A stretch of 62,235 nt of DNA, the filler included, from Sphacelaria rigidula (lineage: Eukaryota), in the NCBI GenBank assembly GCA_964200075.2. It is 10 parts of 10 records of this genome, joined end to end, with 100 filler letters (N's around TTAATTAATTAA, not from the genome) between each part and the next. Parts side by side here need not be neighbours in the genome. Positions count along the whole stretch, not along the records: positions 6,236 to 12,369 come from CAXNAA020022009.1; 9 more parts are not named here. The stretch is one strand, 5' to 3'. Positions 3,429 to 43,704 of the stretch are shown in pieces. Within the stretch, counting starts at the first letter, position 1; the number at the start of each line of letters is the position of its first letter. Both the position numbers and the translations under genes were made by a program. Under the pieces are notes generated by a model that saw nothing but the letters and a program-made list of their open reading frames with translations, made no database searches and was not told the DNA's origin.

Positions 3429-4787
3429 CTCCCTCTGGTCGGGGATATAAGCAAGGTCTGGAGAAAAAGCGGCTTGACTCCTGCCTGCAGAACTCTATCT
3501 CCGAACGGTTTTTTTATTGGTTCCGCCGAACCAGCGCGCAGCGCGCAGAACCGCGGTCTTTTTGGCGCCACCTCGCAAAAGTGTGTTGCACCCCAGCAGA
3601 CCACGCCCGATCTCACCACCCCTACTTTGGAGGTCCGGTCAAACGCCTTCCCATCTGCTGTTGGGGCATGTCTGCTGCTGGGAGTGCCTCTCGGGGGCAA
3701 AAACGCAGGAATTTCAACCTTTCGCAGAGGGAAGAGGTGGTTCGCTACCTCCTCGCCAGCAGCAAAGATGGGGTTCGGCGCCATGGTTCGTTCCAGGATG
3801 CCGCGGAGAAGTACGGGTGCCATTGGGAGACGATAAAGAGGATTTGGGTGAAGCACCAGAAGCGGGAGGAAGCTGGAGACCCCGATGCGTACATTGGGAA
3901 CGACCGCAAGGGCCATTCCGGCCAAAAGGGCATCGATGTTGAGAACCTACGTGAACGCGTCAAGGAGATTCCGCTGAATGAACGCGCCACACAGCGCCGC
4001 TTGGCCGCGGCGATAGGGATTTCCCAAAACCACGCTGAACGACAACCTCAAGGCGCTTGGGTTGAGAGCACACTCGAACGCGCTCAAGGAGGGGGGCTGC
4101 TGCAGGACAAGGAGGGGGGGCTGCTGCAGGACAGGGAGGGGGGGCTGCAGGGGGGGACGGGACGGCGGCCGTGTAGAATGAGGTGGTTGCGGTGTACGGA
4201 GTAGATCAAGTGTGACCGACGAGTACTCCGGAGTACTCTGGGAGTAACAGGGAGCGGCTGCAGTAGGGAAAGGGGCGGCCTATTGCGGAGAAGTGTCGCC
4301 GTACTGCTGTGTAGACGGAGACGGCTGCCATGGAGTACTCGGAGTAGAGTTGTTTGGCTACCGAGGCTGAGGCTGCACAGGCAGTTGGTTCGGGGCGCGG
4401 GTCAAGTTGGTTTTCCACGTTCGCCAACACGGGGATGAGAATAAACTGTCCCCTCCCTTTTCGAGAGGCACCATGTTTTTTTTCATTGAAATAATGTTAT
4501 GCCTAATTCCAACTCTCTCTTCGGAGTACTCTCGTCACACTTGACAGGAAGTATGTCCTGTCGCTGGGTACAAAAATGCCGGATTTCCGCCATTTCCCTG
4601 GCCCGGGGATGGTAACGCACCATCCCCCCCCTGTGGAGCGGATTTTTTTTTTTATGGGATGTGTGATCATTTGCCGTCGTTGTCCGACCTCCACCGTGCC
4701 CAAATGGCTCGTTTCTGTCAATATTGTGGAAACCTCGCTTATATTCCCAGATTTCCAAACCTTGCTTATATCCCCGACCAGAGGGAG
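3429..4787 (+). mobile_element. Internally deleted Tc1/mariner DNA transposon (plant-mariner/Stowaway-type ends)
   Basis: 29-bp perfect TIR CTCCCTCTGGTCGGGGATATAAGCAAGGT at 3429 and inverted ending at 4787. TA duplication at 3427-3428 and 4788-4789. Contains a transposase N-terminus. Confidence 0.9.
3668..4088 (+). pseudogene. Truncated, frameshifted mariner transposase (HTH DNA-binding region only)
   Basis: ...CHWETIKRIW...NDRKGHSGQKGIDVENLRERVKEIPLNERATQRRLAAAIGI; after a 1-nt insertion at ~4021 it continues PKTTLNDNLKALGLRAHSNALK. This matches the plant-type mariner pattern RKG.CGRK...IPL..RTT.R.LA.ALG...HSNALKP. No catalytic domain follows. Confidence 0.82.
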
Positions 4788-5111: not shown

Positions 5112-6239
5112 ACACTTTGTGACCCTGTTGTGATGAAGTACGTGTATCGTAGACTTCTATGCTACACCAGAAGAGACAGGTTTCAAACACGTGAAACGTT
5201 CGGTCTACATACATATTAATCTCACAATTCCATCCACTCAAAATTGACGCTCAAGGCAACAAAACGCTGAAGACAAAATCTTACCCCATCCCAATAAACA
5301 GTACAGTAGTACTTGCTGCAAGAAAGGAAAGACGGGCTCTGTGTCTACGACGAAATAAAGGGCTGCACAAAGCACACACATGATTTTCGAGGCGTTTTGG
5401 AGCGCGCTTGGGCTACGATGCCGCTTGGTTGTTGGCCACCGAACGCACCCACCGCCTACACACACGTGCGCGTTGGGGCAAACCACGACACAAATACGTA
5501 ATCTAGACGCACACTCGATAGACCCACAGACCAACTCCTTCCCGGGTTGGACCACGTAGAAAAACCAAACACCGTACAGAAACGATCCCATCCCGTCCGG
5601 AGAAGTTCTTGATTCTGTTGATCGCTCTGGGCTATCCGTAAACTGTTTACGGATCTTGCCGATAATCTGAGTGATACAACCGAAACCTTCAACGGCGGAA
5701 GATTGAGGCTTCAGGCCCTGGCAAACTTCATTTTTAATCTGACAAGTACGAGCATGTGATCTCCGTCGTTGACAAAGTGACCATGTTACGCAGTAGCAAG
5801 AAACACCTTCTTTACGACAGTCAAAGCGGTGCGGGAGTGCTGGTCATGATCTAATCCGTGATACCAAAATGTACGGCGTAGACTGCTTCGGGGGGAGGCG
5901 TGCTGAAATGTTGCTAGCGTCAGTCATGTGACCATTAACCACGCATTTCTTTCGAGACGGAGCACTGTATCGAGGGAGAAGACATGGGTCGACCTCTTCC
6001 AAATACAAACTCGTTCCGAGAAGGTGACAGAAAAAACGTACTACGGTGAGTGGGTGGGTGGGTGGGTGGGTAGGTGGGTGGGGGGGGGGGGGGGGGGGGG
6101 GGTGGAAAAAGAAAAAAAACCAGAGGGGGAAAAAANNNNNNNNNNNNNNNNNNNNNNNNNNNNNNNNNNNNNNNNNNNNTTAATTAATTAANNNNNNNNN
6201 NNNNNNNNNNNNNNNNNNNNNNNNNNNNNNNNNNNAAGA

Positions 6240-6325
6240 AAAAACCCCAGAGCGCTCCGGGAATCGAACCCCACAACTCAACCATCAGAAGGTTATGAGG
6301 TTACCAACTGAGCCACCCGAGCGAG
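6240..6325 (-). repeat. tRNA-derived SINE head
   Basis: Minus strand: ggtggctcagttggtaacc...ggggttcgattcccggagcgctctgggg followed by a T-run. Pol III A and B boxes are present. Confidence 0.65.
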
Positions 6326-6443
6326 TAGGATACTTCAAAGTATGTATTTGCAACATGATACACATGTGTATCTTTTTGAAGATGGGTTGTGGATTGCCGT
6401 TCATATGGTCTCGTCGCGAATTCACCGTGCAAAAAATGTGCAG

Positions 6444-8256
6444 ATCGAGCGACGTGGACCTCTTCATCTACGGCCTAACTGAGAAGGAGGCCACGGAGAA
6501 AGTTCGCCAGATATATCAAGCCGTCAAGCGAGCGAATAAGAAGGTGACACGCCATACCTATATTTAATGGAGTAGCTCAATCCTTTTTCATTCACCGCGA
6601 AGATTTTAGGATACTTCTCGTGGGGGCGTTTTTGCACAAAAGTCAACTCACGAAACATTTACATTTACGCACAGCAGGGGTCCCACCACAGTGCTCGATC
6701 CCACCACTATACGATCAGAATTAGGTGTCACGTCCGACCCGCCATACTGTGAGTAATTTCAATATACCCGTACATCGCGGGGTCCGACAAAAGTGCTGTC
6801 ATGAGAGATTGGCAACCCCCCCCCCCCACTGCAGTTGAACCGCCGCTGTATGTTGTTATCTGTCTCCTGTATGGGCCGGCTCGCTCTGGATATTGCCCCT
6901 GGNNNNNNNNNNGACTCCCCGGGGTCCGCCAAAAGTGCTGTCATGAGGGATTGGCCCCCCCCCCCCCCCCCACTGCAGTTGAACCGCCGCTGTATGTTGT
7001 TATCTGTATCATGTATGGGCCGGCTCGTTCTGGATATTGCCCTCGGGCATTGAGTGTTTCGCGAACCGGGGGTGGTGTCTACTGCAAGCCACCGCAAATG
7101 ATGGAACCGTACTCATCTCAGCCTCACCTTTTTCGATGCTGTTTCTGTGCTGACCAGCAAAATAACGACTATGATAGTTCGGAGCACTGGGCAGTCGAAG
7201 AGTTCGTACCGCCGCCGCTTTTATCACCAGGAGGTCGAATATGTGGTCATGGCTGTCTTGGCTTCCACCAAGGACTAGCCCCGCACGTGGGTGCTGCGCA
7301 AATATGACCGAAACTGAAAAAGGACGTATTGCAGTATTTCCGACGCTACAAATAGCACCACTTTTGCTCTGCGATGCACCTCCGGTTTCACATTTTGTTG
7401 TCGTACGTTGAAAGTGGTTCGAGATGCCAGGTTTTGAGCGGTTTACCTGCGCTCAAATATTTAGAAACTTCAGCACCCACGCTCACCCCCACCCTCCAAC
7501 TACCCATCCGTTCATTCGTCTTGCCCCACCTGTTTCGCATGAAAGATTTTCGCAGTACGGTCGCTTCGGGCCATCACTCTGGTGTCGGAGTTCCCATACC
7601 GGAAAGTGCAAATCGTGCTGCGCCTGTACAAGACTCTGGCGGAGGTTCTACACGGCTTCGACGTGGACGCCTGCAGCGTGGGATTTGATGGCCACACGGT
7701 GAACTCTTAACCCCTTGACTTCCTGGCGGGGGTTGTCTGCCTCTGCCTATCGGGGTCACCTTTCGAGCGAAGATGGTATCGATTAAACGGATGACCCACG
7801 CAAGCGCTCATAGAAGGGGCAAAACAAGACAAGAACATTTACCCAAGGGTCGCGACCAACCGACATACCGGGGTCATGTGGTCATGCGCATCTTGCGAGT
7901 CGTGCGTGTATACGGCAAGTACTGCCCGTACCTTGTTTTGTTGTCTGACGGTAAATATTGGCTGTGAGACATACACGACCCAATCTCGGGACAAGCAGGC
8001 ATGATTCATTCTGATGAACGAAGCATACTTTTGAAGAATTCATAATTTCTAATTGGATGGTACCAACCAAGGTTGACTTTCTTCTTTTCCCTCACTCCCT
8101 CTTTTGTCCGTTGTTTCTTGTTTTCATGTGACTGGTGGGCCAGGTATGGGCGACAAACCGCGCGGCACGGGCGATATGCAAGCAGTACAACGTGGTGGAT
8201 CTGTCGCGCCGCAGCCCCTCCTACGAGCACCGCTTGTTCAAGTACGGCAAGCGAGG
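6444..8256 (+). CDS. Partial multi-exon gene for an uncharacterised nucleotidyltransferase-fold protein (exons 6444-6543, 7546-7698, 8144-8256)
   Basis: All introns are GT-AG with matching phase. Spliced: SSDVDLFIYGLTEKEATEKVRQIYQAVKRANKK|IFAVRSLRAITLVSEFPYRKVQIVLRLYKTLAEVLHGFDVDACSVGFDGHT|VWATNRAARAICKQYNVVDLSRRSPSYEHRLFKYGKRG. DxD motif and downstream motifs resemble (from recall) the NTase-like domain of fungal and giant-virus proteins usually annotated 'ankyrin repeat protein'. Confidence 0.85.
6775..7047 (+). repeat. Intronic direct duplication of a ~130-bp unit around a small N gap
   Basis: ggggtccg.caaaagtgctgtcatgag...ctggatattgccc occurs twice (6775-6902, 6917-7047). Confidence 0.7.
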
Positions 8257-8759
8257 GTGAGTATGCTCCAAAATGTATCCAACGACTACTAGTTCTCCTT
8301 CTACAGTGCCTGGCGGTAGCTGCCGTCTTGTTGGGGCCCAGAACTATTGTTTTCGCGGCCAGCCAAAGCGCCTCTTCGCCGCGAGAACCGTGAAGGTTTT
8401 TTTTTTCTTTCATCGTCGTACATTATGCGGACCTTCTTCCTATGGAAGAATCCGTCGACTCACGGAATCAATTCATCTCTCCCGCTGGAATCTGCCTTGA
8501 AAATTATTTTTCGAGTTCCGGAACACCAGTCCCGCACCCCTATCGTGTTTTCCTTTCTTTTTTTTGACCTGTCAACTCGACGTTTTCTCGTTTTCCAGGA
8601 CGGAAACCAGTGGAATAGACCATTCCTGTCGAAATTCGAATCCATTCCCCGAACCAAACTGGCCAATGGTTTCCGATCGATCGCTTCATGGTTGCAGTGA
8701 TTGAAGTGCATTACGTACTCAAGCGCTCAGTTGCCGCTACAGCGGGAACGGTTTTACCA

Positions 8760-10260
8760 CGAGCTGGTCCAGCCTAGACGCGAATTTATAGTTTGCAGGC
8801 CCCGCCTCACCTCAATTTCAAGACGTGGACTTTCAAATTTGGTACGGAGAATGAATAGGGGGTAAACGAAAAGAATAGGACGATGTGTTTTTTTTTCACG
8901 AGTCAACGGCATTTTATTGAAAACTCAAGAACGATTATTGCCTTCAAATCATGAAAAAAGAGCATACGGTCCGGATATTTTTATTATGCTCCATTCATTC
9001 CCCGTACCAAAATTTGAAAGTCCAACTCTCAAAATTGAGGTGAGGCGGGGCGAGGTGATTCAGAAACCGGGACGGTCGAAAGTCGAAATTTTCGAGGTAA
9101 CTCACCGGCCCCGGTTCGATACTTGTGTTTTGAAATTTTGTGTATGACCTCGCTAGGGCATACGGAATCAAAGAATGGGACAGGTCCATTTATTTGTTCT
9201 TTTAAGTAATCAAGGGCGTTTTGGTATAGCAAAAAACATTTTTTTTCACGAGGATGCCCTTAGCTCTCAATAACTACATTGAAGGCCCACTTGAAAAAAA
9301 AATCAGTATGCCTTTGCGACTCTTCATGCCAAGTTTCAAATCACAGTTCTAAGAATTGAGCTGGAAAATTGGAGTAGGGGCCAAGGGCAATGTGCGCTTT
9401 TACTCAAAACTCGCCTAAAAAACGGAACACAATTTTACAGAGGAAAGCATCTCAAGAATCCGTTTTTAAATGTCCTACCGATTCTCCATACCAAATATCA
9501 AAGCTCTACTCTCAAAAGGAGGCAGGTTAACCGGCGTTGGGGTACCAATGCTCATGGTTGACACAATTCTACAAGTATTGCTACCGCCATCCTTAACCCT
9601 AACCCAACGCATACGGAGAACCCTCTGGCAAAGGCGTCACTTAGCATTCCCCAGGCAAAGTGCGGCTTTCGTAGACCCCAAATCGGCGCCTGTGGCACCG
9701 ATTTCAACGAAAACGGGTTCTGCGCACGCTAGGAGCATGTTCGGAGCTCCAGCCTCACGAAAGGTCCGATTCTCGTTGTACCCACTCAAATCAAGTAATC
9801 TCAACCATGGACATTTGTAGCCCAACGCCGGTTAACTGTACTGCTCAAAAACGAGACCCAAAATTCAGATTTAGTGCGTTTGGTGCATCTTCTCGTAATA
9901 TACTGATTACAGTATGGAATACTATGTGCGCCATATCTCGAGATATATGACGAATTAGGTGAAGGTGACAGTTTCGATCATTTCCCCGTGCTCCAGGGAA
10001 TGTACACACCAAAAACCGACGTCAAATGCTGAATGTATCCTTCGGGGTTTCACGCAGACTTTGGTATGGACCTTATTTCCGTACGGCATAGGAATTACTG
10101 GACATGGAGTTTAATCAACCAGAAAGGATCGGTCAGACTTTTGAGCACATGGGCATCCTTTCCTTGATTAGATGATGAATACGATTTGTGGATCACGGCT
10201 CAACTCGTCTGTGTAGATAAGATATGGCTTGGAGAGCTTCAATCCGTGTCTAGGCTGGAC
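8760..10260 (+). mobile_element. ~1.2-1.5 kb non-coding dispersed repeat with internal foldback
   Basis: Colinear with 13255-14400 (starts gagctgg.ccagcctaga). Internal inverted arms at ~8797-8860 and ~8990-9052. Its distal part also occurs at 3268-3428. Confidence 0.6.
9519..9843. mobile_element. ~320-bp MITE nested in the foldback repeat, containing a CCCTAA telomere-like motif
   Basis: Inverted ends gttaaccggcgttggggtaccaatg / catttgtagcccaacgccggttaac. Flanked by a ctcaaaa duplication and absent from the host homologue near 14030. Related sequences at ~17119-17345 and ~16225-16480. Confidence 0.7.
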
Positions 10261-10832
10261 TAGCTCATTCATGAAGCAGAAATGAGATACTAGATCGGGC
10301 TGCACACCTTGCGGTTGCTCAACCGCAACACTTTGTTCCTGCACCTGAAGTACGCGCATACTGCTGCGAAAAAGCCACCGAAACACACCGAAGCAAGTTG
10401 GTTCTATTTCTGCAGTTACTCATCTAGACGAAGGCTTCATCGTTTTCAAGGTCGAATGCTTGGAGGCTCATGTTTCGCACCGGCGATGTAGCGGACCGGT
10501 GTTGCTCCAATCAAGGGGTACTCGGTACTTGGGCCCAGAGTGACCTGCTGCGGGGTGATGTGTGGTGTGAGGTGTTGTGTGTTATGTGTTGTGAGGGCTG
10601 TATAGGGCGTGTGGGTAAATTTTGGAACACAGGGTGCACCGGGGTGGCTGAAATGACCGCCCTACACACGGTTTGGAGATCAACGCAAAAATGGAAAAAT
10701 AATCGAGAATTGAAACTCGATGCTCGATATTGATTAGAACCGATAAATTTGGTTTTTCAGCCGGCGATTTCGATACGCAGAATCGTCTATGTAAACCACA
10801 ATTTCCCGTGCAATTCGATACCAAGCTTCTAC

Positions 10833-10863
<31 letters not shown>

Positions 10864-11129
10864 GGGAAGGCGTATCGCTAGAGTGGTCAGATACCTACGG
10901 GGGAGACTGCCGTCCTGATGCCGAAGGAACTCCGAGGCTGCCGATGATTTACTCTTGTATAGTAGGCAAGAGGGGGTCAGACTAGAAGTGGTCGCTAGGG
11001 GCGACCAGGACCTCGGGGGATGTTGGACCGTCCTAATATTAGGCTCTTCCTGGCATCACCCCGGGTTGTCTAGTTACGTCGGCATTACAGGGTCCTCGGT
11101 AATCTGGTCCTTCCGGACCGTTCCTGCCT

Positions 11130-11395
11130 CGTCCCTGCTTGCGCTGGTTCTTCACACGTGTGTGGCATCAGTCTCTGATATGTCACTGCAAAGTGGTATC
11201 TTCCACATTATTATGTACATGTGTTGGTCTACTCTGTCGTTTTGTTCGACTTTTTGTTTTTGTTTCTGTTCCTTCTTTTCTCCAGCGAGTGCTTCAGTTG
11301 TGTTTTGTCTTGGGTACGTCTATCATGAGACCACGGCTGGACCCCTGGAGGGTCAGTTAAAGTACGACAATCAATCAAAATCAAATAAAATCAAT
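11130..11395 (+). mobile_element. 3' end of a LINE/SINE-like retroelement with (AATC)n tail
   Basis: ...cttgggtacgtctatcatgagaccacggctggacccctggagggtcagttaaagtacgacaatcaatc; near-identical reverse copy at 26884-27045. Confidence 0.6.
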
Positions 11396-13254
11396 AAAAA
11401 AATCATTCCACACTTTTCACCACTTTTGTCGGGTTTTCTCTGGCGACAGGGCAATTTTTACCGCGCCTCCTTTTGCGTTGCACTGAGAAGGCTCAGCGGT
11501 ACATTACCGTTCAGGTTTGGGTGTCATCTCATATCTGTGGCGCGTGTTCTGGCCACTGAAAGTCGCTCAAACTGTCCCTTTTTACTGGGGTGTCGATCCC
11601 GAACCACGAAAGCCTTTTCAAGATAATGGAAAAAATGAAACGAGAATCCGAACCCCCCCAAAAGCCCGTTGAAGATCACGGAAATCTTCAAACAGGATTA
11701 CTTTTGGCGGGGTATTTTCCCCCCGTGTGTCTCTTTGTCGCGTCATCGTTCATTTGGGAGCACGACACACCGGTTATTATGCCGTCAATGTCCCGAGAAT
11801 ATGAGAGCAAAGCAGTTGAAAACAATTGAACATTGCCTTGGCCTTAGCCAGCAGCAAACACAAGACCTTGTAATGGCCCGTTGGCGAGTCGAACAAGGCA
11901 CAGCAACAATGCAGCACAGGAATGTTTTGCCGCAAAAACAATCAACTTTCCCCGCTGTCATGCCTTTGTGGCACGAGGGTTACTTCGCACTCTGGCACCT
12001 CGGAAATACCACACATGTCCTACGCCGGCGGTTTCGCCGTCGGCCTTCGTCCGAATTACCATTTTTCCGAACGACATCCGATAACACATGCGATGTTTTG
12101 TTCAGCTACAACCACTACTGTACATTGAGATACAACAGCCTCTCTTGACTATATTCTTCCGACTTGCGTCACCCCAGGGAGGCCCGTACCAACCTCCCGA
12201 AGGGGGAACCTTGTATATCTTACTGTATATGGTTGTGTGTATTCGGTCATGTCTACCCCTTTTCAGATTACTCATGTCATGTTCACCCCCCCCCCCCCCC
12301 CCCCCTTTTCCCTCCCCCCTTTCCATTACCACCCCCTTTTCCATATACAAAAGGACCCTCTCGCAACCTNNNNNNNNNNNNNNNNNNNNNNNNNNNNNNN
12401 NNNNNNNNNNNNNTTAATTAATTAANNNNNNNNNNNNNNNNNNNNNNNNNNNNNNNNNNNNNNNNNNNNACCCGGCGTGCTCCGTCCCGGCTTTGTAGCG
12501 ATGCGAGGTCAATGGTCCTATGACTATGGCATCCATGATCATGAGTATACCACCAGAAAAGTCCCCGCAATGTGCCCAGAAATCCCCTCTCTAGAGGAGA
12601 CTTGAGGAACTGCAAAAAAGAACACTTCCTGAAATCCCCTTTTGAAAAAGAATTTCCGGACAGCTTAAAGGGGAACATACATATCCTGCTGACAGGAGCA
12701 CATGCAAAGCCCTAACACACAACCCAACAGGATCCGAGCTACACCTGTGGAACAATACGATTTAGTTTGTTATATCACAACATAGTATAATATGCTGACG
12801 GTGGAGTTTGTCACGCTCACTGCGTTGAGAACCACACACGCTGCGCTCACCATAAATGCATCGCGAATTTTTTTTGCGATGCTGTACAGTCTGAGGAGTG
12901 TATATCTAAAAGAAAACACAACCAATCTATACACACAAAAGCAGCTGGGTTTCCTGCCTGGCAAGCTTGTACGATAAGTTCAAGGGTTGGTGGTGGTGGT
13001 GGTTAGTCTCTGTGTGTGAGCTGTTGCTGTGCGTGTCGTTATGATGCGTCGTCTCTATTGTGTGCGGGGAATTTCAAAAATATGTTCGTCGGACCGGCGG
13101 GTCTGCTCAAACATGCTGGGGAACTGGTTCTACTGTACAGGCAGATTCTGTGAATTCGCCCGTGTACACGCAGATACACGGAGGTCGTGAAATTCATGTA
13201 CAGTTTCGCGAGACGAAGCTCGAAGCTTGCCTGCGGCAAATCTCGGAAAACCTA

Positions 13255-14400
13255 CGAGCTGGGCCAGCCTAGAGGCGGATTTGAAGTTTGCAGACGAATG
13301 CGCCGGCTAATATCCAGAGTTGGAGTATAAAATTCGGTATGGACAATGCATAGAGCATGAAAACAAATCATAAAAAAGCACCAGAAGTTTTTGTTTTTCG
13401 TGAGTTGAGGGCATTTTACTGATACCTGACTGATCATTGCCCTTACCTCACGAAAAACAAACTTCTGGTGCTTCTTCAAAATATTTTTTTCATGCCCTAT
13501 GCATTGTCCATACCAAATTTTACGCTCCTACTCTAAATATTGGCCGGCGCATTCGCCTTCCAAACACCGGGTCGGTAGAAATTCGGAAGAGTACTTCGCA
13601 AGCCACTCACCGGCCCACGTTTGTTTGTTGTGTACTGGAATATTGTGTGGGCCCTCGCTAGGGCATAATTAACAAAACTTAGTGGGTCATTTGTTTTATT
13701 ATTTTTTTCACTGGTTTATGGCGTTTTAGTATGGTAACGACCATTTTTTTACGAGAACGCCCGAACCCCTCCCCCCCCCAAAAAAATGAAGGCCCATTTT
13801 TTTGGGGGGGGAGGGGAGAAGTTCGGGCGTCCTCCATGCTAAGTTTCAAATCACGATTTTCGAAATTGAGCTAAAAATTGAGATAAGGCCCAAGAGCAAT
13901 GTTCATTTCTCCTCACAACTCCCCTAAAAACACGAAACAGAATGAAAAAAAACGAAAGAAAAGTACAAGCTGTTATTTTTATTTCATCATGCACCAGCGG
14001 TCCTCCATACCAAATTCCATAGCACAACTCTCAAAAACTGAGACGCCATATCCAGATTAAGGGCATCCAGTGCCTCTGCTCGTAATATATCGATTCTAGT
14101 ATGGAACCTCATGTGCGCCATATTTCGAGATAGACTACGAATTGGGTGAAAGTGAGGGTATCTTTTGTCTTTTCGTGCTCCAGAGAAGGTCCACACCAAA
14201 AATCGTCCTCATCCGCTGAATGCATCGTTTGGAGTTCCATATAGATTTTAGTGTGGACGCTATCTCCGTACGGTATAGGAATTACTAGACACGGGGTTTA
14301 ATCAACGAAAAAAAAATGGCCCAGATTTTTGAGCAGATGGGCACCTTTCCCTTGATGAGACGATTAGTACGATAGGCGGATCATGGCCCAACTCATCTCT
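13255..14400 (+). mobile_element. Second member of the foldback dispersed repeat family
   Basis: Long imperfect hairpin at 13293-13557. Downstream sequence is colinear with 9060-10220. Confidence 0.6.
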
Positions 14401-17400
14401 GTCGATGATATATTGCTTTGCGATAATAGATCCGTCTTTAGGCTAGCCCAGCTCGTATGAGAGTATGCATGTCGAACGATACAGATGAAACCCCGGTGTT
14501 CGCTGAACGCCATCCTTCATGGCGAAGAAAAGCGCCGAGTTTGGGACGGTACGGTGTAAGCTGCCCGTGAGCATCGATGCCAGGAGTCGGTTGGCATGAC
14601 GTGCTGGCAATTAGTCGGCAAGGAGTGTGGATGCCGTCGATCACGGTGTGTAGGCAATGTGTGCAGTGCGAACAACCGGTGAGGAGTTTCGTATTAGATA
14701 TTCTGTCCGTCTTGGCTGCGTGTGGCGAAGGTGGACTCATATTATCATCTCTCGTGTGAGTGGAGTGTTGTCGGATTATGATACAATTGAACCGTCGCTG
14801 CGAACAATGTATGTCACGTTCTCTGTGAACAGGAAAGAGTGACATGCCCCGGAGCGGTGATCAGTACAACAGTATAGCCACCACAGCATAGTGCCGACAT
14901 AGACGTGACTTTTGAACTTCTCCCACGGCTGATTATTCTGCAGTCGCAGAGGGGTCTGCAGATAGCAACGTGAATGAAGGACGCTATATCCTCACAAACT
15001 AATGCGAGCAAACACGCAGTGTTATAGTCGCCATGATTATGTCTGTTCTGGGACACGCCATGCCCTCTGCCTCGGCTTCTGTGTGGCTGGGTACAGAAGC
15101 GCCAACGTTTTCCTTTGATAATTTTGTCAGAGTGTAGCGTACAAAAAGTGTATGGCATTCTCGCTAGCTATTTTGAGGATACATGATGAATTGATACACA
15201 CGCACAAAAGTTAATCCAACTCAGACCTCGTGACACCCCCACGGTTCTCGGAACCCCTCGCAGCGAACAACAGAAGCAACGAACAGAAGCGCATAATACA
15301 GTCTTCATGACATGTAATCTGTTCAAGCAAACACCACGCGCTCGACGTTGGGCTCAGTGCAGAGCTGTGTACACAAACGTCATCGTTGGTCTCTTGGTGG
15401 TTCGTGTCCTTTTGAGGGGCCCAACATATACGGAAAGTGGGTGTCTGTGCAGTCAAGTTCACCAGTTGGTTTTAATGTGGTTTCCAAAAACTGAATTTTT
15501 TAATAGATTTCAAATAAAAGTTCCAACTTGTAAGAACGTCCAATGCTGATTGTTTCCCACGGTATCGACAGCGAATGTGCAGGGAACGGACTGAGCAATG
15601 AATACGAACAGACCGCAGATCTTGTTCATCCCCTGAAGATGCACGCCGTAAAATCACCCAGAGCACTTCCGATTTGAGTGGGGTTACCATTTCACGGTTT
15701 CGAAGTTTTCTCCTCCCGGAGTACGACCCACGGCGTGGCTCGGCTACTCACCGGCGTGTATTTGTGTGAGCTACGATGTTGGTGCTCACTTTGTCAAAAG
15801 AAGTTATGGTGATCGAAAAAATCGAAAAAAAACTTTAGTTTCCGCACTTAATGCATTATAAAACTCGGATCCTGGTGAGTTAAAAAATTCCAAGCACCGA
15901 TGTTGTAGCTGTGGTTTTGGCGCAGGTAATGCAAAAATTCGTTTCCCAATCGTTGGCCTTGGTTAGGAGTATTTTCTGAAACAGGTTGGGCTATCAGCCC
16001 AAACAAGCGCCTCCAGCCCTCGCCAGTTTCGACGACACGCGAAAACCTCACCCCTGTCCAACGGCCTCTGAATAGATGACACCCATGAATAACTCTTGAT
16101 AGTACAGATGGTTGATACATCGGATATGTAGAATGTTCGAGAGGTGGAGAATTTGAACCTTCGACCGAACCTCCAGAAGCAAGCATAATCTTTGCGACCT
16201 CGTAGCAGCGAATGGAACGAATTATAACACTAACTCTAACCCCAACCCTAACCCTAATCCTAACCACAACGAAGGCATACCGATAACCCTCGCGCAAGGG
16301 GGGTGCCATGTCTTCCCTAGGCAAAGGGTGCGTTACCAGACCTCAAATTGGCGCCCCGGGCGCCAATTTAGACAAAAACGCGTTCTGGGCACGCTAGGAG
16401 CATGCTGGGAGCACAGCCTCATGAAAGATCCGGATTTCGGTTTCCCCACTAAGATCAAGATTGACCAACTTACCCTCCCGGATGGCAAAATATACTGCGT
16501 CAAGATGACACAAAAGACAGCATAAAATCGTCGGCCCACTTTCGCCGAGCCACATGGCACCGAAGCCCCATTCATGTCTTTCAGTGGATCCACCCTTCCT
16601 AAGACACGCGTCTGTTGTATCTGTACTGGTGGGCTACGAACGACCGTTTGTCTTCATTCCCTCTTGCAACACAATATCCGATTAACCCCTAGATCACGAG
16701 CGCCGTGCATCTGGACCATGCATACTTTTTTCAAGTGAAAAATGATGCCGATTCAGCATGTGACAAACCGTCGCGGTCAGGGGGTTATGATATTCATCAA
16801 ATGAAAAGCCATGCCCACAGAACAACAAATTCACTTGCACAAGGCAAGTCATTCATCGACTAAAAGCTGTGGAATGATGGCAGCCAATGAATCAAGCTCC
16901 TCGAAACGTGACGAGGAGGTGGACCAACACCCGCCATGCCCACATGACACACCCGGTGATTATTTGTACTCCACTCGTCTGTGTAAGGGCCGTCCTCGTT
17001 GAGGGCCCTCCTCGTTGAATTTCTTGACTACATATGGCTCTGTCGCATGTTAGCACATTGTGTATGTTGGCCCAATTTCCATCCGCATCCCACCCAAAAA
17101 ATGGTTCAGCTTGGTTTCAGTACCGGCGTTGGGCTACAAATGGTATGGTTGATATTATTTGATTTGAGAGTGTACAGCGAGAATCAGAATTTGAGTACGG
17201 TTGACGGTTCCGTCTGCTCCTCGGGTGTGCAGCACGCGTTTTCGTTGAAATCGGCGCCACAGGCGCCCATTTGAGGTCTACCAAGGCCTCACTTCATTCA
17301 GGGAATGTCTATACCGCGCTGTTCTCGGTGTGCGTTGGGTGGGGTCAACCCAACCAGCCTCCTTGCATGCCAGGGTATCGCAAGCGCGGACGAAATGCGA

Positions 17401-18480: not shown

Positions 18481-18956
18481 TTGTTTTGCGCATAATCTAG
18501 CATAGCGCCTTGCATCTGGGGGTGTATAGCGCGATTTGAGAAAGAACTTCTCTCTCTTGCGGTGGTGAATGACCGTCGGCTGGGAGGTTCTCGCCCATGA
18601 TGGNNNNNNNNNNNNNNNNNNNNNNNNNNNNNNNNNNNNNNNNNNNNTTAATTAATTAANNNNNNNNNNNNNNNNNNNNNNNNNNNNNNNNNNNNNNNNN
18701 NNNCGTCGCATGTTGGGACCTTGATCCCAACTGCGATCACTCCCCTTCCTTCCCTCTTCATCAACAAAGCTTTATACACATTTCTACCTCATCTTGATCG
18801 GCAGTCAGCCGTGTCCATTGATCGACTATCGCAGTCGTGTCCATTGATCGACTATCTGAGTCGAGTCTGCACCCCATCCTCTCACGGGGTCACGAAGCTA
18901 CACTCAAACACTCTAGAGCCCCTACCCAACTTGGGAGCTTTGTGACCAAGGGACCG

Positions 18957-22416: not shown

Positions 22417-23282
22417 ATGGCGGACTGGAGCACTGCGGAAAGACACTTGGCCGTCGTGGGAGACACATCGTCTCCAACAGAGATACTGGAGGTAAAAGAG
22501 AATGTCGCCAGCTTTCAAGGAACGGTGACGGGAATTGCCGAGCAGCTGGCGGAGCTGAGGATGATGATGTCCCAATTAGTGCGCGGGACATCGTCCACTG
22601 GCCCCGGAGCGGCGGCGGACGAGGAGGGGGAGGCAGGCGAAGGGAGGCACACCGTCGCCGGTGCCGGAACAGGGAGGGTCCGGTCACCACGCGGTGTAGG
22701 GATTGTATCGGGCTCTCTCCGAGGATCCACGGGCGATGGATCCGCCCAAGTATGAACGAGGATTCCCCGGCTTACTACCCTCATCTAGGCGTGAAGAGTT
22801 GTTTTCGTGTTGATGAAAGATTCGATGACAAGTTTGACAGTAAGGAGAAAAATTGGCCGTTGATCCGTGATGATGATTCCCTGACACAAGTTAGTGCCGC
22901 TGTTTTCATAAGCGCCTCACGTGACAGACGCGAAATATTTCCATATGACACAGGAAACTGGCCAGGACCCCCCGTAAAGTGGCAAGGGAAGTCGAAAAAG
23001 GGATTTGCGAATTTACAAGAGACCTCGGGAAATACGGGGGATTCAAGACTAGACGGGCGTGAAAATGGTTCTGCGAAGGAGAGGCGATGTTGGATTTGCC
23101 GGAAGCAAACAACACACTTCGCGCGTGACTGTCCGGAACGACATTGTATGAGATGCGGAAAAAAGGAACACTTTTATCAGGATTGTAATACAGGAGAAAA
23201 CGAAGATACAGCGATGGCAATAGGGTCGTCGGGTAGTAGCGATTCTTCAGTATGTTCGGAAGCGGACGCAGAAGCCTTTTGA
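22417..23282 (+). pseudogene. Degraded gag-like ORF, copy 2, with two zinc knuckles
   Basis: CWICRKQTTHFARDC (CX2CX5HX4C) and CMRCGKKEHFYQDC (CX2CX4HX4C). Frameshift near 22752. Confidence 0.75.
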
Positions 23283-26200
23283 AAAATGATGGCATAAGAT
23301 CTATGCATGATTCAAATACCCCTTTGTTTTTTTGCTTTGAGTGTTCGTGTACCCAAGGAAAGGTTATTGCTCAGGTGGATCGAGATGTTGTACATCTCTG
23401 GACAACGCTGAGATCGTACTTTTGATATGGAGACCGAAACTCAGTGTTGATGTTTGACGAATGTTTCTGTCTCGATGAGTGCAAATTTGCTTTGCGCGCT
23501 TGTTTGACTCGATTGATGAATAGGAGATCGTCTGCCGTTTTTATAAGTGTGAGGAGAGCGGGGCACCGCGACTTTACTTGACTGTGGAACGGTGTCGGTA
23601 AAAATTGCACAGAGTGAAGTGCGTGAAGAGTGTTGAGGACATGTTCCGACATGGATGCCGAAACTCAACGCTTATGTGTAACATTGTTGCCACCCCGATG
23701 AGCGCAGGACTGTGGGGCACCACACCCTTACTCGATCGGTTGAGGTGGAACCTTGTTCGTCGCCTTGGTGAGTACAGGCACGTGGGGCACCATTGTCTGA
23801 CTAGCCTAGAGGGTGATGTCGGTAAAATGTTCCGCAGAGGGGTATGCGGATGAACGATGGTTGAGACCACAAAATTTGAGGTGGATTCCGAAACTCGACA
23901 TCTAAATGAAAAGGTTGTTATCATTCCGAGAGGTGTAGGATTCGCGAGGCATCGGCTTCTTGACTGGATTGGTTTCCAAGACTTCGTTGTTACGGTAGGA
24001 GCAAGGACTGAGTATAGTGCAATACTAGTAGCTTGGCCTGATCATGATGATATCGGAAGAGTGACTGTGGGCACAAATGAAATTCCTGTGCTACAGGTCA
24101 GCAAAACGCATGTGACCCATATTTGATGGCTAATAGATAAAGCTGACGTCATGTGCGAGATGCGGTTCATGTGCACAGCATGGTAGAAGAAGAGTGCACT
24201 GTATCACCCATATGGGAGCTGGTCGTTGCTCGGTTGGCTGGCCAGGCGAATTCCATACAGGTTTACACATGTTGGCACGGCATGTAAAAAGTCAAAGTGT
24301 ACTGTTTCATGCAACCAGGATGCTTGCGGCAATGCCGTTTGATCCATGTGTGGTATGTGAACGAGAAGTGAAGAGTTGAAATGATAGTGCTGGACCCAGG
24401 TATAATATGTGGGTATGCGTTCGCGACTGCCGTAACGCGACACCACAGTACGGTACGTGGTAGAGGTATGTTCATCGGTTGGTGATTGACGCGCCTGAGT
24501 AACATGGATATTAATAATTTTCCTTTCTGTTGTCCCACTGCCCATTCCCCTCGGATCTGCACGATATGTGAGACGCTGAGCCTCCAAAAACCATTTTTGT
24601 CCGACACAGGTGCTGTCTGTGAGGCTGAGACGAGCATGACATGACGGATGGTTTTGGAGGGCGGTGACCGACCAGGATCAAGATCAGCCTATCGCTGCAA
24701 ATCTCCCTCGCTACTGGGGAAAGATGATGAATGCAGCACTCCTTCCCCGTGGCCTAGAAGCGGGGGGGCGTACTCATTTTTTGCTTGCCTTAGTCATTTG
24801 ACCATTGACCACGCATCCCTTTCGAGACGGAGCATGGNNNNNNNNNNNNNNNNNNNNNNNNNNNNNNNNNNNNNNNNNNNNTTAATTAATTAANNNNNNN
24901 NNNNNNNNNNNNNNNNNNNNNNNNNNNNNNNNNNNNNCACTACGTCGTCTTTCAAAACAATTCCGTGTCGGTATTTTTGGGTGTCGGCTGTGGTGTGGGG
25001 GGGGGGGGCGTACTCATTTGTTGCTTACCGTAGTCGTTCGACCATTGACCACGCCTCCCTTTCGAGACGTAGCACCGTTCCTACTCCTAATAGAGACACC
25101 TCCAACATTCTCGCGCTCATTACGTTTTTTCAAAAGCTCATTACGTTTCTTCCATACACTACCCAAAAACCTTTCACATATCTTATCCCCATCCTGTTTC
25201 GCCGTCGGTGGCCACCATCCATCTCCTAGTACAGCCATTGTTTTCTCCCTACTGTCTAATGCATCAAACGATTTCATGCCACCTTTGTTCACGTCTCGCA
25301 TTTCATTTCACGTGCTTTGGGGGGTGGGGGGTTGATCCAGCGAGGCATTTCACTGGCTTGTCCCGAGAGAGGGAAAGGGTTGGGAGTGTGACGGGACATA
25401 AGGTAATGACATTTGTAGAAGTTTGTTAGCAGTGAGAGTGGGGTAATGTAAAGAATTGAGCGTGCTTGAGGTTGTACACTCGGACAAAGTACTTGTGGCA
25501 TGCAAGTCGGTGGGTTAAAGGCAAGACAAGATGGGGTGATTATGGTGAGCCTATAATAGTGAACAGTGGCGATGCAAGGGCTGCCGAGAGAAAGCTAGGG
25601 TGACCCACGGCTTTGATGTCATGTGATTCACGCTGCTAGATGTTGAATGATGAGCAGCGTATGCTGATGAGCATGGCTGTTGCTTTTTGTGTATTTCTTG
25701 GTACATTCGGCTGTTGCACTTTTCCATTGAAGACAGGATAACCCACAGATGCACCGACACACTGTACTACACACTTCGTTGTCATGGAAAACCACCCCGA
25801 CAGAAACACGAAAAATACAGGTCCAAGAAGACAACAGAGGTAACCGCATTTTTTCAGATATTTCGTGGCCGACTGACACGCAAACTACCGTCGGGAGGTT
25901 GATTTTCGTACGCTGCACGCGTCAAACGCTGTCTTTGGGTGGTGTACCCTTCTCTTCTCCCTCTCCAATATGTGTACCCCGAGTATATTTTGGACATCGT
26001 GTTCCGAACAAAGTATAAGAAGTAAACAACACCATAATGGTTGACGCGCGGCTCTTGCAGAACGGTGTGTCATATGTGTGCTTCTGTGGGAATTTTACGA
26101 GAGGAGGACTGTCGAAATCAAGAGGAAACTACCGTGGCGTACGGTATATATAATCGTTGTTTACCACCCCGTTGCGTAACATCGTCCGGGGATGATTTTT

Positions 26201-30958: not shown

Positions 30959-32681
30959 ATAGTCGGGGGAGGGCGGGGGGGGGGGGGGGGGGGGGGACCC
31001 CCCCCCTACCTTCCGGTGGGTTGTAGCTTTCTCCCCTCCCCATCTCTCGCCCCGCACCCTGACCCCGTTCCNNNNNNNNNNNNNNNNNNNNNNNNNNNNN
31101 NNNNNNNNNNNNNNNTTAATTAATTAANNNNNNNNNNNNNNNNNNNNNNNNNNNNNNNNNNNNNNNNNNNNCGAGAAGAATGAATCCCCATGACTCAAAA
31201 CAACGGAACAACACAGGTACACGCAGCCCAAACACGGGGAAAGGCGCAAAAGAAGCATGGAACACCCCTTGGACCAGCGGTCAACTTTTCCCTCCCTTTC
31301 GGGCAATCAGGCAGAAGAAATCGTGAATTTGGTGATTTTGAGTCGTGATGATTTGTCCTAACCGTGGAATAGTTAGACCGCCCACTACTGTACCCGACGC
31401 GTGATTGCGATCGCGGGCACTATGGACCCCGTAAATCGCTTGGGCTTACTGGTTGGCCAGGAAAGCGCGCCAATATTTGCTTGACCAGCTTTGTATGGCT
31501 CACTTCTAGGAGCTAGAAGGTGAAATTTTGCCACCGTATTTATACGATAGCCATCGATATGCAGGCGGGGACAGTACGTTCCAAGAAAAAAAAAACGACT
31601 ACCATTTAAGAGCCGGCAAAACAAATATGACAGTACTTGGAATTCCCATACCTCAACGATGCGAAAAGAAACTACTCCTTGAAACGTCCAGCTAAGGGTG
31701 AGAAAGTGATGTCTAGAAGACCCATGACAAAAGTTGGCTCAAAGTTCTTCAAAGTGAGCAACGTATTTAATGTTTTGTGTAGCAATGGATTTCCGGTCGC
31801 GGGTACAGGAGAATGAGTTTTGCACCAAAGTTCAAATTCCAAAGGTGAAAACAGGTAGTCCGGACGAGGCGGTTTTGGACGCATACTGTGCTCGATGTTA
31901 TCATCGTCAAGACTTGGCCAATCGAACAGCGAAAAGGTTCTCCAGCAGCAGGCTGGGCTGCACTTTGCATTGATGGTCTTACATCCGCCTAAATTTGGCC
32001 AGTTATTGTGTGCTAGGGGAATGGAGCTTTCAGGCTGGCCCAGCTGGTACAGCTCCCCTTGGTCTCTTCCCTTCTTTTGATGAAGTGATGTTTTACTCAT
32101 GTTCTGATCGTTTGATGCTTCGTTTCGCAGTTTACACCGTGTACATGATCCATCCTTTTCTCTTTCACACTTTCTGTTTTCCTTAGCGAGCGGTTCCATC
32201 TTGTTTCTTAGCACCTTGGTACGTCTATATTGTGGATAATGACGATCAGGATCAGGTCATGTTAGTGTGCATCAAAGAAACCAGTCAGCCAATATATACT
32301 CAGCATGCCTGAGGCCACGTGCACCCAGAAAGTACTTGCGGGTTACAGCTGACGACCGCTCAATATGTTTCATTTTTCATTTTGATCCTTCGATATGAGC
32401 AGTATGGTATTGTCGAGGAAGAAAAAGATTGCCTCTTGTCTCCAACTGCAGCAGCATCGTTGGCGTCACCATTAAATCATCGTCCACAGATGCGGCTCGT
32501 TGTGAAGAGCGCGCAAATGAGAAACTGATATTCCCCTCTCCTTGTTTTCTTTTCTACCGTAGATACATGTATGCCCGGATAGGGGCCTTTTTACAACGCA
32601 ATGATAAGCAATGCAGTTCCTCACCTTCGTGAAAAAACCAACGAGCCTTGTCCCATTTTTTACGTCTGTTTATGGCGGCGG

Positions 32682-36165: not shown

Positions 36166-39100
36166 GCCGCGGTTCCCCGTAGTTTAAACAACATCTCCGA
36201 GAAGCTTTCCAATATGATAAGGCGGTTTTGCTACCTGATCTTGGTTTTCCTTGAAACACGTCCCTAAAAAACCGGATTCCCCGACCGCCGTTACCCACGA
36301 TTGAGAAAGCATTCACGGCATGTCTTCCAGCGTGATGATCAAGCAACTTGCAGTTTTCCCATCTGGTTATGATACTTCTAGAGAAAAGTATCGCCCTCTG
36401 CGATGGGTAGTGTTGTAGTACAGAACTGTGGTGGCCTGTGCACTCCATACTTGATTCGCTTACCTAGACCCAACATATTTTTTCGTTGAACACCGGCCTG
36501 ACTGAGTCTCCGTGTCTGGGGCCACCCTGCCGTGGGAAGTACGAACCCGAACATACATACACGCATGAGGTCTTTCAATCAATTGTTGGTGAAAGAAATC
36601 AAGGGAAAATAATGAGTGACGCGATGACGGGTGCGTTCATTGGGATCGCGAAGAAGCTCATTTTTTACCAGACTGAGTTTCAACCCCTCAAGGTCTGCGG
36701 CGAGCGAATCCTCTCGATGCCCTTGAAATCTTGATATATACGCGTTGCATACCAAAAGCAAAATATAAATACGTGAAAATGACCGCGTAGACGTACGGAA
36801 ACTATGTAAGAGGACACGCCTGTCTGGAACACTCTCATAAAATTGGAGCCTCCTCGGAGGCGGCAGGCTAGAATATTTTTGTGGCCAATGCCATGAATGT
36901 GAGGCCATGGGGATATGCATCATTTCAACGACATGCCGCGAATGCGTACGCGTGAAAAAGGTTCCGGCTACTCAACTTCAGGCAGAGTAAGAAGCGTGTA
37001 TGTGGAGGTGCGTTTGAGAGGACCCCGGCGTCCTGGTCGTTGGCGTTCCCTTGGGAAGATGTCCCGGTTGTGGTGTGCTCATGCCCCTCCTTCACCCGTC
37101 TATACACACGGTCTCGAAGGCAGTAATTGTGTTCAGCACATGTACAACGAAAATTGTGTCCAACCAAGGAATTGAAAAGACTCAGTGGCCAGCCGAAAAC
37201 GGTGGTGCAGTACTCAAAAACTCAGCTTGTAGTAATTAACAACAAATTGTGAGAATTGAGGTTTAACTTCGAGATGAGGCTCAAGCCTAAAACAGTGCTT
37301 TCCCNNNNNNNNNNNNNNNNNNNNNNNNNNNNNNNNNNNNNNNNNNNNTTAATTAATTAANNNNNNNNNNNNNNNNNNNNNNNNNNNNNNNNNNNNNNNN
37401 NNNNAAACCCGACTCACTTGAAGCGAATGATCAGAGCCCCCCTCAATCGTATCATCTACTCTAAATCTCACGAAAACACTGTTGTGTTTTCCAGTGGCTG
37501 CATAAATGGGTTAATATTTTGGTTAGACTAGCAATTCCTTGGACAAACGATCAATGTTTAGAAAAAGGTTTGATTATTTGCCACGTTTCGGTGTATGCAT
37601 TTGGCGCTTTTCGGTCACTAGCGAGAAAGATTTCCAATCCCCTTCAAGATCGAAAACTGCGAGCACCGCTATAAACACGCAAAAGTGTTCCGAAATCCCG
37701 CTGGATAATATATAAATCATCCTCAGGTAGTAGAATCCGCCTAACCCTCTTTCCGATCACAAAATATATCGCGAAAGAATGGCAAAACATATTGGGTACT
37801 TTCGCGAGAGTTACACTTTTCAGCATTAACATGGATAGAAAAAGCATTGACTATCGTTAATTTTTGGTTTTTCTGAGCTTTGGCTACGTTGGGGCCCATG
37901 TTTAAAAGTAAGGGGCGAATTTACTCCATGTATGCGGTACTTGTGGGGAAAATTCACCTTCCTTCTTGTAACGTTGCAGAAAACCAAACAGAGCGAGAGG
38001 ATGGATCAAGTACAGTGATGAACCGAGAGATGAAGATATTCCACGGATCTTGCTTAATACTTTGAGAGCTTACCAAAGTAGACAGCTATGGCGACCAGTT
38101 TATTGAGCAAACACAATACCGATTCAATCGATAGGCACCCTGCTGCTTTCTCAGCGCCCCCGTGTGCCCATGTCCGACGTACGTAGGCCACAGTGCATCT
38201 CTGTGATTTGGTTTTCAAATATACCAACGATCCCCTGATGAATTTTCCTCAAGTACGGCGCGGCAACGGGGTCAACCGCACGAGTTTCGCCCTCGTGTTC
38301 GCTCCAGGTTCCTCGCAGGACACAGGAGAACGTAGAAGATTGTACCAGGTTCATAGCTCAGTACTTTCCCTCTCTTATTTCTCCTTGTTGATTATAAGCA
38401 TTTACCTGGACATAACACTTAGAACGGTCCCCAAAGGGCCGTTATGAATGTCTGCCTCCGTCTATGACGACTGGCAGACCACTGTAGCCATGGCTTGGGT
38501 TCCATTACCAACCTCCCTCTACATACTCTGTGTAGGCCGCGTGAGGGATGAGGATGCAGACGACCGGGTGAAACATACGTGCCGGTTGTTCGCTGAATTA
38601 GCGTGCAAGTACCACACTGATATTACGTCCACCAATGAGGATTGCCCGTACGTACACATAGCAACTAGCAGCAGCAGCAGCAGCGCTGGTCCTTTACTCT
38701 CTTTCGACCAAAATCAGAAAAAAAACCTCACCACCTTACAGTCAGTCTCGGGCACGCAACGGGCAAGTAACTCGGAGGCTTTCGACACGTTACCGTGTAC
38801 TATTAATGCGGCAACAACAGTATCTTGACTGGGAGGGAGGGGGGCCGGGGAGGCACTCTGCCATTCAATTTACAAGACAGGGCTCCACATGCAGACCACA
38901 TCCCAAAACGTCGCCTCGCCACTCCAACCACTGTTCGTCCCAGCATAGCAACGAAGTCACGACGGGCACACTTTCCCCCGACGTCCCGTGTGTACTCTGA
39001 CTATGTCACGTTCGCACCTACCCGGGACTTTCCTATATATATGCGCCTGGAATTCTTGAAATTATGTGTTCATACTGATTTCAAGACAACGCGCATAGAA

Positions 39101-42899: not shown

Positions 42900-43704
42900 C
42901 TGTTGAGCAGGATGCGGGAATAGGTATGCAGAGGGGCGATCAGAAGGAGAACCGCGGGCGGGGTGGAAAGGGGAGCGGGTTGACTCATGAGCTTACGTGC
43001 CGTAGTCATGAGACCATTGACCGAAGCCGGGACGGAGCACGCCGGGTTATCGCCGGACCAGGCTCTCAATCAATCGCCAAGCGCGAAGCGCCGCGATGTG
43101 TCTCGTGAGTCGCATGAAGGGTGAGAGAGCTACATCCTGCCCAGATTGTTTGACCTAATACGCGCTGATTATCTTGCATATGGATGACAACCCATCATGA
43201 GTTGCTTCATTCTCTGGTATCGCCACTGCCTGAGACAGCCACTGCTTACACACTGCATCATGGGTGTCTCACCAACTCAGCACTACGTAGTATGATCGTC
43301 CTCTTTGAGCGGGATTTGGAGGGAAGGGGATGGGGGTGGGGGTACTTATGATCTCGCATGCCATAGTCAGATGACCATTGGCCTCGCATCCCTACAAAGC
43401 CGGGGCGGGGCACGCCAGGCTTCACCGGACCAGGCTCGGACGGAAGGGGGGGATGTTGAAGTGTACAGGGCGTCAGTGAAAGTTCAATGGCTGTGTTGTT
43501 CGGCGCTGCATCCGCACACGTGGGTGGGGGGGGGGTGNNNNNNNNNNNNNNNNNNNNNNNNNNNNNNNNNNNNNNNNNNNNTTAATTAATTAANNNNNNN
43601 NNNNNNNNNNNNNNNNNNNNNNNNNNNNNNNNNNNNNGCGTGTTACTCACACACCCCCCACCTCTGTGCCAAAACCCCCTCCCCCCCCCAATCCCTCCAC
43701 TTCT

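Follow-up and report, generated by a model that had tools for sequence, protein, structure and literature searches.

A transcribed, spliced three-exon piece of a brown-algal gene for a predicted Gad2-type (PF26128) nucleotidyltransferase in Sphacelaria rigidula

Gad2 and the position of the algal locus

Gad2 is the second anti-defense protein described against Gabija. It is a 400-amino-acid (aa) protein of SPbeta-like Bacillus phages, one of which, SPbetaL7, needs it against Gabija; in the searched portions of the report on it, AlphaFold2 predicts a nucleotidyltransferase, and its mechanism is not established there (bioRxiv 10.1101/2023.05.01.538930). Here we analyze a stretch of 62,235 nucleotides (nt) of the brown alga Sphacelaria rigidula (assembly GCA_964200075.2), referred to as the window, in which one contig carries three short exons related to this protein. 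We put the probability at roughly 80% that these are three internal exons of a brown-algal gene that is single-copy, transcribed and spliced, and whose product, a predicted enzyme, combines TPR repeats with a Gad2-type (Pfam PF26128) nucleotidyltransferase domain.

PF26128 carries the name Gad2 in the Atlas. The family is very large and its catalytic residues are strictly conserved, with one genetic phenotype (phage Gad2 against Gabija) and no known reaction. Searching by the Pfam identifier returned no literature, and the searched portions of the Gad2 literature (the 2023 preprint, reviews and surveys) mention no reaction, no substrate and no cellular eukaryotic members, although the bioRxiv supplements, which lay outside the search, may list homologues. 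The name has 0 occurrences in the main text of the EVADES preprint. These texts agree with the original prediction, which was made from the DNA alone, that no substrate has been assigned.

That prediction also presented the gene as hidden and undescribed, and as the best candidate in the window for a novel system. This did not hold, as the domain is a named Pfam family whose founder has a published anti-Gabija phenotype, and public brown-algal proteomes already contain predicted full-length orthologues. Rather than a new system, the gene is a further member of a family that has a name but whose biochemistry is unsolved, and it is ordinary as a locus; what had seemed a "hidden" spliced gene is part of one that is normal, expressed and conserved. 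A role in host-virus conflict in the alga is still pure conjecture. What the brown-algal member adds to PF26128 is a TPR-linked architecture. Once solved, the chemistry of any member would account both for the defeat of Gabija by Gad2 and for the function of thousands of eukaryotic "ankyrin repeat proteins". Among brown algae, Ectocarpus has genetic tools and a natural giant virus.

Three exons are transcribed and spliced

From 11 listed public sequencing runs we compared X6, X7 and X8, which belong to one study and are guessed to be RNA, with X1, which is of DNA type. The features of the gene within its contig are as follows.

6236..6443, plus strand: 3' end of the intron preceding exon A, with the acceptor AG at 6442-6443; holds a very high-copy tRNA-like repeat
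6444..6543, plus strand: exon A, SSDVDLFIYGLTEKEATEKVRQIYQAVKRANKK, with the DxD metal-binding motif; its first base is the last base of a split Arg codon
6544..7545, plus strand: intron 1, 1,002 nt in the window, GT..AG, phase 0; skipped in X6, X7 and X8
7546..7698, plus strand: exon B, IFAVRSLRAITLVSEFPYRKVQIVLRLYKTLAEVLHGFDVDACSVGFDGHT, with the invariant P, R, Q, E and FD.D residues
7699..8143, plus strand: intron 2, 445 nt, GT..AG, phase 0; skipped in X6, X7 and X8
8144..8256, plus strand: exon C, VWATNRAARAICKQYNVVDLSRRSPSYEHRLFKYGKR followed by a split Gly codon, with the invariant R, S, E, R, L, K and Y
8257..12369 (contig end), plus strand: start of the next intron, with donor GTGAGT at 8257; holds a 253-nt hairpin and repeats

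Splice sites lie at AG 6442-6443, GT 6544, AG 7544-7545, GT 7699, AG 8142-8143 and GT 8257. Joined by these coordinates, the exons give 366 nt, made up of a single base left from a split codon, 121 complete codons free of stops, and two bases of a Gly codon. The GT-AG splicing in matching phase that had been predicted is therefore as described, and the motifs named at the time read as written: SSDVDLF in exon A, QIVLRLY...GFDVDACSVGFDG in exon B and DLSRRSPSYEHRLFKYGKRG in exon C.

Both proposed exon joints, 6543/7546 and 7698/8144, are present with GT..AG borders and 0 mismatches in one contig each from X6 (2,259 nt), X7 (1,957 nt) and X8 (5,101 nt). These contigs start matching the window at 6443/6444. 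In X1, 0 contigs contain either joint, and exons and introns are covered colinearly at an equal depth of ~60. That intron-less contigs occur in X6, X7 and X8 but not in X1 supports the guess that these three runs are RNA. Low-depth unspliced contigs that cross into intron 2 also occur (X6 record 9 and X7 record 15). The locus thus consists of three genuine exons, expressed and spliced, of a nuclear brown-algal gene, as the original prediction of an intron-containing nuclear gene had it.

In the longest of the spliced contigs (X8 record 20, 5,101 nt), the three exons occupy positions 3458-3826, which leaves 3,457 nt upstream and 1,275 nt downstream that correspond to exons off this genomic contig. 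A transcript of 5,101 nt fits a protein like the 1,307-aa orthologue of Ascophyllum (P0009), in which exon A begins at residue 952. It had been proposed that the N-terminal GG motif and the C-terminus lie outside the contig, and this is borne out by a contig start 208 nt before exon A and by a transcript that runs off the contig both ways.

Coding potential was also assessed with a profile of nine orthologous or closely related proteins, used without any filter. Against all six-frame open reading frames (ORFs) of the contig, this profile found exon B at E 1.2e-37, exon C at 1.8e-24 and exon A at 2.1e-17, and no further exon, the next best ORF having E 4.4. When five full-length orthologues were compared with the window by tblastn, the three pieces abutted in protein coordinates, for example at 742-785, 784-836 and 836-873 of P0012. 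Judged by these sequence comparisons, the three-exon coding signal is far beyond chance. A fourth tblastn match at 22710-22877 (E 0.72) is spurious and lies inside an unrelated contig.

Intron 1 contains a tandem duplicate of ~120-140 nt (6778-6898 and 6920-7042, 92-96% identical) around an N10 gap at 6903-6912. The duplicate is absent from the X1 DNA contig, where record 1 jumps from 6815 to 6958, so it is probably a gap-closing artefact or a polymorphism; the true length of intron 1 would then be ~860 nt.

Orthologues have TPR repeats and a C-terminal Gad2-type domain

A search with exon B found 15 related proteins that were 73-94% identical, all 15 of them labelled PF26128.2. Five are only 91-132 aa long. 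Others are full-length "unnamed protein products" of 601-1,307 aa from Ascophyllum, Ectocarpus, Pylaiella and Scytosiphon, with a partial one from Choristocarpus. The spliced peptide as a whole is 84-87% identical to four long brown-algal orthologues and corresponds to residues 273-394 of the Ectocarpus orthologue (P0010). Short public relatives (91-163 aa) end at the residues KRG because read-through of the donor GGGTGAGT (GGG TGA) gives Gly and then a stop.

From the N-terminus, the orthologues of 1,061-1,307 aa consist of a coiled and low-complexity part, TPR repeats, a helical linker domain and, at the C-terminus, a PF26128 domain of ~430 aa. A Pfam scan found TPR families upstream of the Gad2-type domain. 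The residues invariant in the family (DxD, P.R..Q, E, FD.D, R and S...E.RL.KY) are intact in the Sphacelaria piece. In terms of the alignment of 52 eukaryotic domains (A1), which has 16 invariant residues, all 15 invariant columns that fall within the piece are kept, as are 20 of 21 near-invariant ones, the 21st being the split Gly codon.

Relation to phage Gad2

Membership in PF26128 is indicated by the labels on relatives. The nearest Atlas clusters are 94-96% PF26128 Gad2, and PF26128.2 is the label of each of the 120 relatives listed for the domain of the orthologue. The same label is found on 119 of the 120 listed relatives of SPbetaL7 Gad2 itself, whose sequence was taken from OQ921347.1 (coding sequence 109563-110765). 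When A1 was compared by hhalign with an alignment of 25 phage proteins (A2), they matched over 145 columns with E 6.5e-5 and a probability of 64%, with the motifs AGG(S/A), D.D, Q, FD..C..FD and R..KY..G in register.

SPbetaL7 Gad2 therefore shares with the orthologues a Pfam identifier, the colinear motifs hAGG(S/A), D.D, Q, FD..C..FD and R..KY..(R/K)G, and a predicted nucleotidyltransferase activity. In contrast, it is a stand-alone protein of 400 aa from phages and prophages of Bacillales, it has no repeats, and its C-terminal half does not align, whereas the algal orthologues are 1,061-1,307 aa long, contain TPR repeats and are encoded by an intron-bearing gene. The known role of Gad2, blocking Gabija, has no obvious counterpart in the alga and there is no reason to expect it there. 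The link to phage Gad2 is remote, yet both the curated family and the profile comparison support it.

The PF26128 family at large

A phmmer search with P0010 against 1.84 billion representatives found 4,492 clusters at E <= 1e-3, 2,283 at 1e-10 and 373 at 1e-30, and the region shared by the matches is P0010 residues ~170-600. Among the 120 listed relatives of the domain, named organisms include Basidiomycota, Ascomycota, chytrids, Glomeromycota and Anaeramoeba, and the proteins are called hypothetical, "ankyrin repeat protein" or "reductase". By our count, the partner domains among these 120 are ankyrin in 37, zf-MYND in three and a protein kinase in one. Structural matches to the P0010 model extend to giant viruses, with 78 rows at E <= 1e-3, including Fadolivirus (E 1.3e-32, TM 0.63), Pithovirus, Bodo saltans virus and Pandoravirus. 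The original prediction was right that this domain is also carried by proteins of fungi, protists and giant viruses, most of them labelled "ankyrin repeat protein" or hypothetical.

The ankyrin-type members of fungi, Anaeramoeba, Pithovirus and Fadolivirus match the ~430-aa domain over its full length, with 34-54% identity in the best 150 rows. They differ in having an ankyrin array as partner, in often reaching 1,500-2,300 aa, and in carrying the domain N-terminally; brown-algal and related forms have N-terminal TPR repeats followed by the domain at the C-terminus.

Sixteen long relatives were scanned for partner domains. Ten have ankyrin arrays, two have TPR, one has WD40, one has nothing else, and two have WGR plus PARP. 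In the latter two (P0173 and P0234), WGR, PARP regulatory and PARP catalytic domains stand ahead of the Gad2-type domain, and P0234 also contains PNK3P (polynucleotide kinase 3'-phosphatase) and a kinase-type P-loop domain, AAA_33. These fusions place the domain beside modules for DNA-break sensing and end repair, an architecture that points to DNA-end biology.

Predicted fold and reaction

The AlphaFold model of P0010, based on 52 sequences, has a pLDDT (predicted local distance difference test) of 81.9 and a pTM (predicted template modeling score) of 0.84. Aligned with VIA-align, it matched 3wfo_A with Z 9.2 (173 residues aligned, root-mean-square deviation 3.7; unrelated models can reach Z 7-8), 3h37 with 8.0, 3aql with 7.4, 9kma with 7.2, 1miv with 6.9 and FAM46B with 6.8. 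The best rows of Foldseek against the PDB were an A-adding enzyme, a bacterial poly(A) polymerase, CCA-adding enzymes, TUTases, FAM46 and CD-NTases, every one of them a Pol-beta nucleotidyltransferase, with a best E of 4.5e-3. There was also a match to phrog_1614, "nucleotidyltransferase" (E 0.002-0.004), and exon A gave a weak match to PF18765 Polbeta (E 0.062). From the consistency of the match lists, the motifs and the PHROG match, the best reading is a Pol-beta-type nucleotidyltransferase fold with a class-II-like head and neck, at moderate strength. The DxD core of such an enzyme, as originally proposed, is supported by the fold matches and the PHROG family.

The closest structures are the class-II enzymes, namely the A-adding enzyme 3wfo, the CCA-adding enzymes 3h37, 1miv, 9kma and 1ou5, and the poly(A) polymerase 3aql. 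Their head and neck align over 160-200 residues (Z 9.2-5.5), the GG...DxD arrangement is common to both, and the Foldseek probability in the top 10 rows is 0.87-0.99. Unlike them, the PF26128 domain has the invariant Q, FD.D and S...E.RL.KY, and the identity in the structural alignments is 12-15%. The A1 profile found 0 matches at E <= 1 among 177,635 PDB sequences, and a Pfam scan of seven orthologues at E <= 0.001 found neither PolyA_pol, which we take to be the Pfam family of class-II CCA-adding enzymes and poly(A) polymerases, nor any other nucleotidyltransferase family. Because no relation to class-II enzymes is found at the level of sequence, either in Pfam or in the PDB, the gene is not an orthologue of a CCA-adding enzyme or poly(A) polymerase, an identity that the original prediction had named as the case to be checked.

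In the proposed mechanism, the GG(S) loop, the DxD pair and the invariant aspartate of FD.D would bind a nucleoside triphosphate and Mg2+, and a nucleoside monophosphate would be transferred to a hydroxyl acceptor. The TPR array would bind a partner or direct the enzyme to its target, as ankyrin, WD40, BTB and MYND modules would in relatives. As for the acceptor, a nucleic-acid 3' end is the most likely single candidate, at something short of even odds, and is favored because of the fold resembling class-II CCA-adding enzymes and poly(A) polymerases and because of the PARP/PNKP fusions.

Several points weigh against the reading of the locus as a piece of a TPR and Gad2-type nucleotidyltransferase gene, or against parts of it. 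The RNA kind of X6, X7 and X8 is a guess. For the Sphacelaria gene, the GG motif, TPR part and C-terminus are taken from orthologues and from the length of the transcript contig. The PF26128 assignment is indirect, as it comes through labels on relatives and not from a direct score of the window peptide. At the level of single sequences the relation to Gad2 is faint: A1 against a single Gad2 sequence gives E 0.19, BLASTP gives a borderline E of 0.028, and tblastn of P0010 against 50,697 phage records gives no match at E <= 0.01. A hidden Markov model of phage proteins only (25 Bacillales Gad2 relatives) scores the spliced peptide at 7.1 bits over profile positions 47-115, where the match is expected to lie, and the best of 300 shuffles at 5.5, and so does not separate the peptide from shuffles. 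The best structural Z is only slightly above the range that unrelated models reach, and no Foldseek PDB row reaches E 1e-3. The choice of acceptor draws solely on fold likeness and rare fusions, and no biochemical activity is reported for any PF26128 member; even phage Gad2 has only its anti-Gabija phenotype and a predicted fold, to which the searched portions of two 2026 reviews add nothing.

Alternative acceptors and alternative origins

The next likely acceptor is a nucleotide, in which case the domain would produce a signal from nucleotides, such as the cyclic or linear oligonucleotides made by CD-NTases, cGAS and OAS, and would not tail nucleic-acid ends. We regard this as possible but unlikely. 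Weaker Foldseek rows do include CdnC (6u7b, E 0.037), CdnE (6e0k, E 0.086) and ClCdnE (7x4a, E 0.091), with probabilities of 0.25-0.54, Gabija is regulated by nucleotide levels, and the founding member, Gad2, acts in a phage-bacterium immune conflict. However, the best matches of both aligners are class-II A- and CCA-adding enzymes and poly(A) polymerase rather than CD-NTases, no CD-NTase is among the 50 best VIA-align rows, and the searched portions of the literature report no product for any member.

Transfer to a protein or small molecule, of the kind carried out by GlnE, MntA or ANT enzymes, with the TPR or ankyrin part presenting a target protein, is a more doubtful proposal. It would suit the near-universal fusion to protein-binding repeats, which were ankyrin in 10/16, TPR in 2/16 and WD40 in 1/16 of the long relatives, with ankyrin families in 37 of the 120 listed relatives by our count, and one weak Foldseek row is an aminoglycoside nucleotidyltransferase (6nmk, E 0.1). 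The probability of that row is 0.13, though, the top matches are RNA-end enzymes, and the PARP/PNKP fusions indicate nucleic-acid ends.

A wider proposal, more speculative still and improbable as a whole, is that the eukaryotic Gad2 branch works in the response to genome damage or to viruses, as a so far undescribed class of enzymes that act on nucleic-acid ends or make nucleotide signals. The TPR form of brown algae would then represent this class in stramenopiles, the phage counter-defense enzyme and the eukaryotic and giant-virus enzymes would share one common chemistry, and the fusions (PARP/PNKP, ankyrin, TPR and BTB) would mark a sensor-coupled effector.

Brown algae carry integrated viruses, and the strongest structural matches of the domain are to giant-virus proteins (Fadolivirus at E 1.3e-32, with 78 rows at E <= 1e-3), while one of the nearest Atlas clusters occurs most often in Nucleocytoviricota. 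The gene might therefore be read as a recent integration from a phaeovirus or other nucleocytovirus rather than as a host gene. This is very improbable, as two spliceosomal GT-AG introns of the gene are spliced out in RNA, and the same TPR architecture is found in Ascophyllum, Ectocarpus, Pylaiella, Scytosiphon and Choristocarpus, with 80-94% identity in exon B. TPR repeats together with the domain also occur in five more distant proteins (P0017, P0019, P0020, P0140 and P0141), and the listed giant-virus matches are labelled ankyrin, BTB, VWFA or uncharacterized, never TPR. An ancient transfer, in either direction, is possible.

Least credible of all is a dead fragment, that is, a partial duplicate or pseudogene of three exons without a function of its own: the contig does hold only these three exons, with 4.1 kb downstream that lack a C-terminal exon, and a number of public relatives, predicted to be just 91-163 aa long, stop at the same KRG, but the spliced contigs of 1,957-5,101 nt extend kilobases past the exons on both sides with 0 mismatches, 15/15 invariant residues are intact without a stop, the linker 208 nt upstream and the high-copy repeats in the 3' part account for the break, and the KRG ends reflect donor read-through.

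Window make-up and host contig

The window is a pseudo-molecule in which unplaced contigs, each of 6,133-6,134 bp, are chained by nine identical 100-bp artificial linkers. Each linker consists of N44, TTAATTAATTAA and N44, where TTAATTAATTAA is a 12-nt spacer with stops in all frames. Equal-sized pieces joined in this way are the signature of size-sorted unplaced contigs made into a pseudo-molecule.

6136-6235, 12370-12469, 18604-18703, 24838-24937, 31072-31171, 37305-37404, 43538-43637, 49771-49870 and 56004-56103: artificial linkers of identical sequence
6136..6235, no strand: the linker that separates the contig of the gene from the unrelated contig to the left

The contig of the gene is 6236-12369, and DNA to the left of 6136 and to the right of 12369 is unrelated to the locus. 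Arguments from neighborhood across linkers are consequently meaningless, and any finding that spans a linker is an artefact. In the DNA run X1, depth is 1e4-7e5 over the first 200 nt of the contig and over most of 9500-12369, compared with ~60 across the gene. Since the contig ends in high-copy repeats at both sides, the assembly break there is explained, and breakage of the assembly in repeat-rich introns is the sole reason why the remainder of the gene is absent.

At the left end, the bin 6237-6441 has a summed depth of 733,252 in X1, where single-copy parts have ~60, and of 11,000-15,000 in the RNA-type runs. Within it, ~6245-6325 on the minus strand resembles by eye the D-arm and T-arm of a tRNA; "tRNA-like" is our own reading, as the stretch was called neither by ARAGORN on the window nor by Rfam on the contig. 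It may be the head of a tRNA-derived short interspersed nuclear element.

Downstream of exon C, a hairpin element of 253 nt (8799-9051) has 42-nt inverted ends that are 90% complementary, and its depth in X1 is raised. It scored 63 and 58.6 bits on the two strands against Rfam MIR7533, far below the gathering score of 230. It looks like an intronic repeat of the miniature inverted-repeat transposable element type and is not called a microRNA. The right part of the contig, 9500-12369, is highly repeated, with summed X1 depths of 6e4-7e5, contigs in many variants, and loose ends at 9968, 11304-11310 and 11378; these repeats are probably transposon remains.

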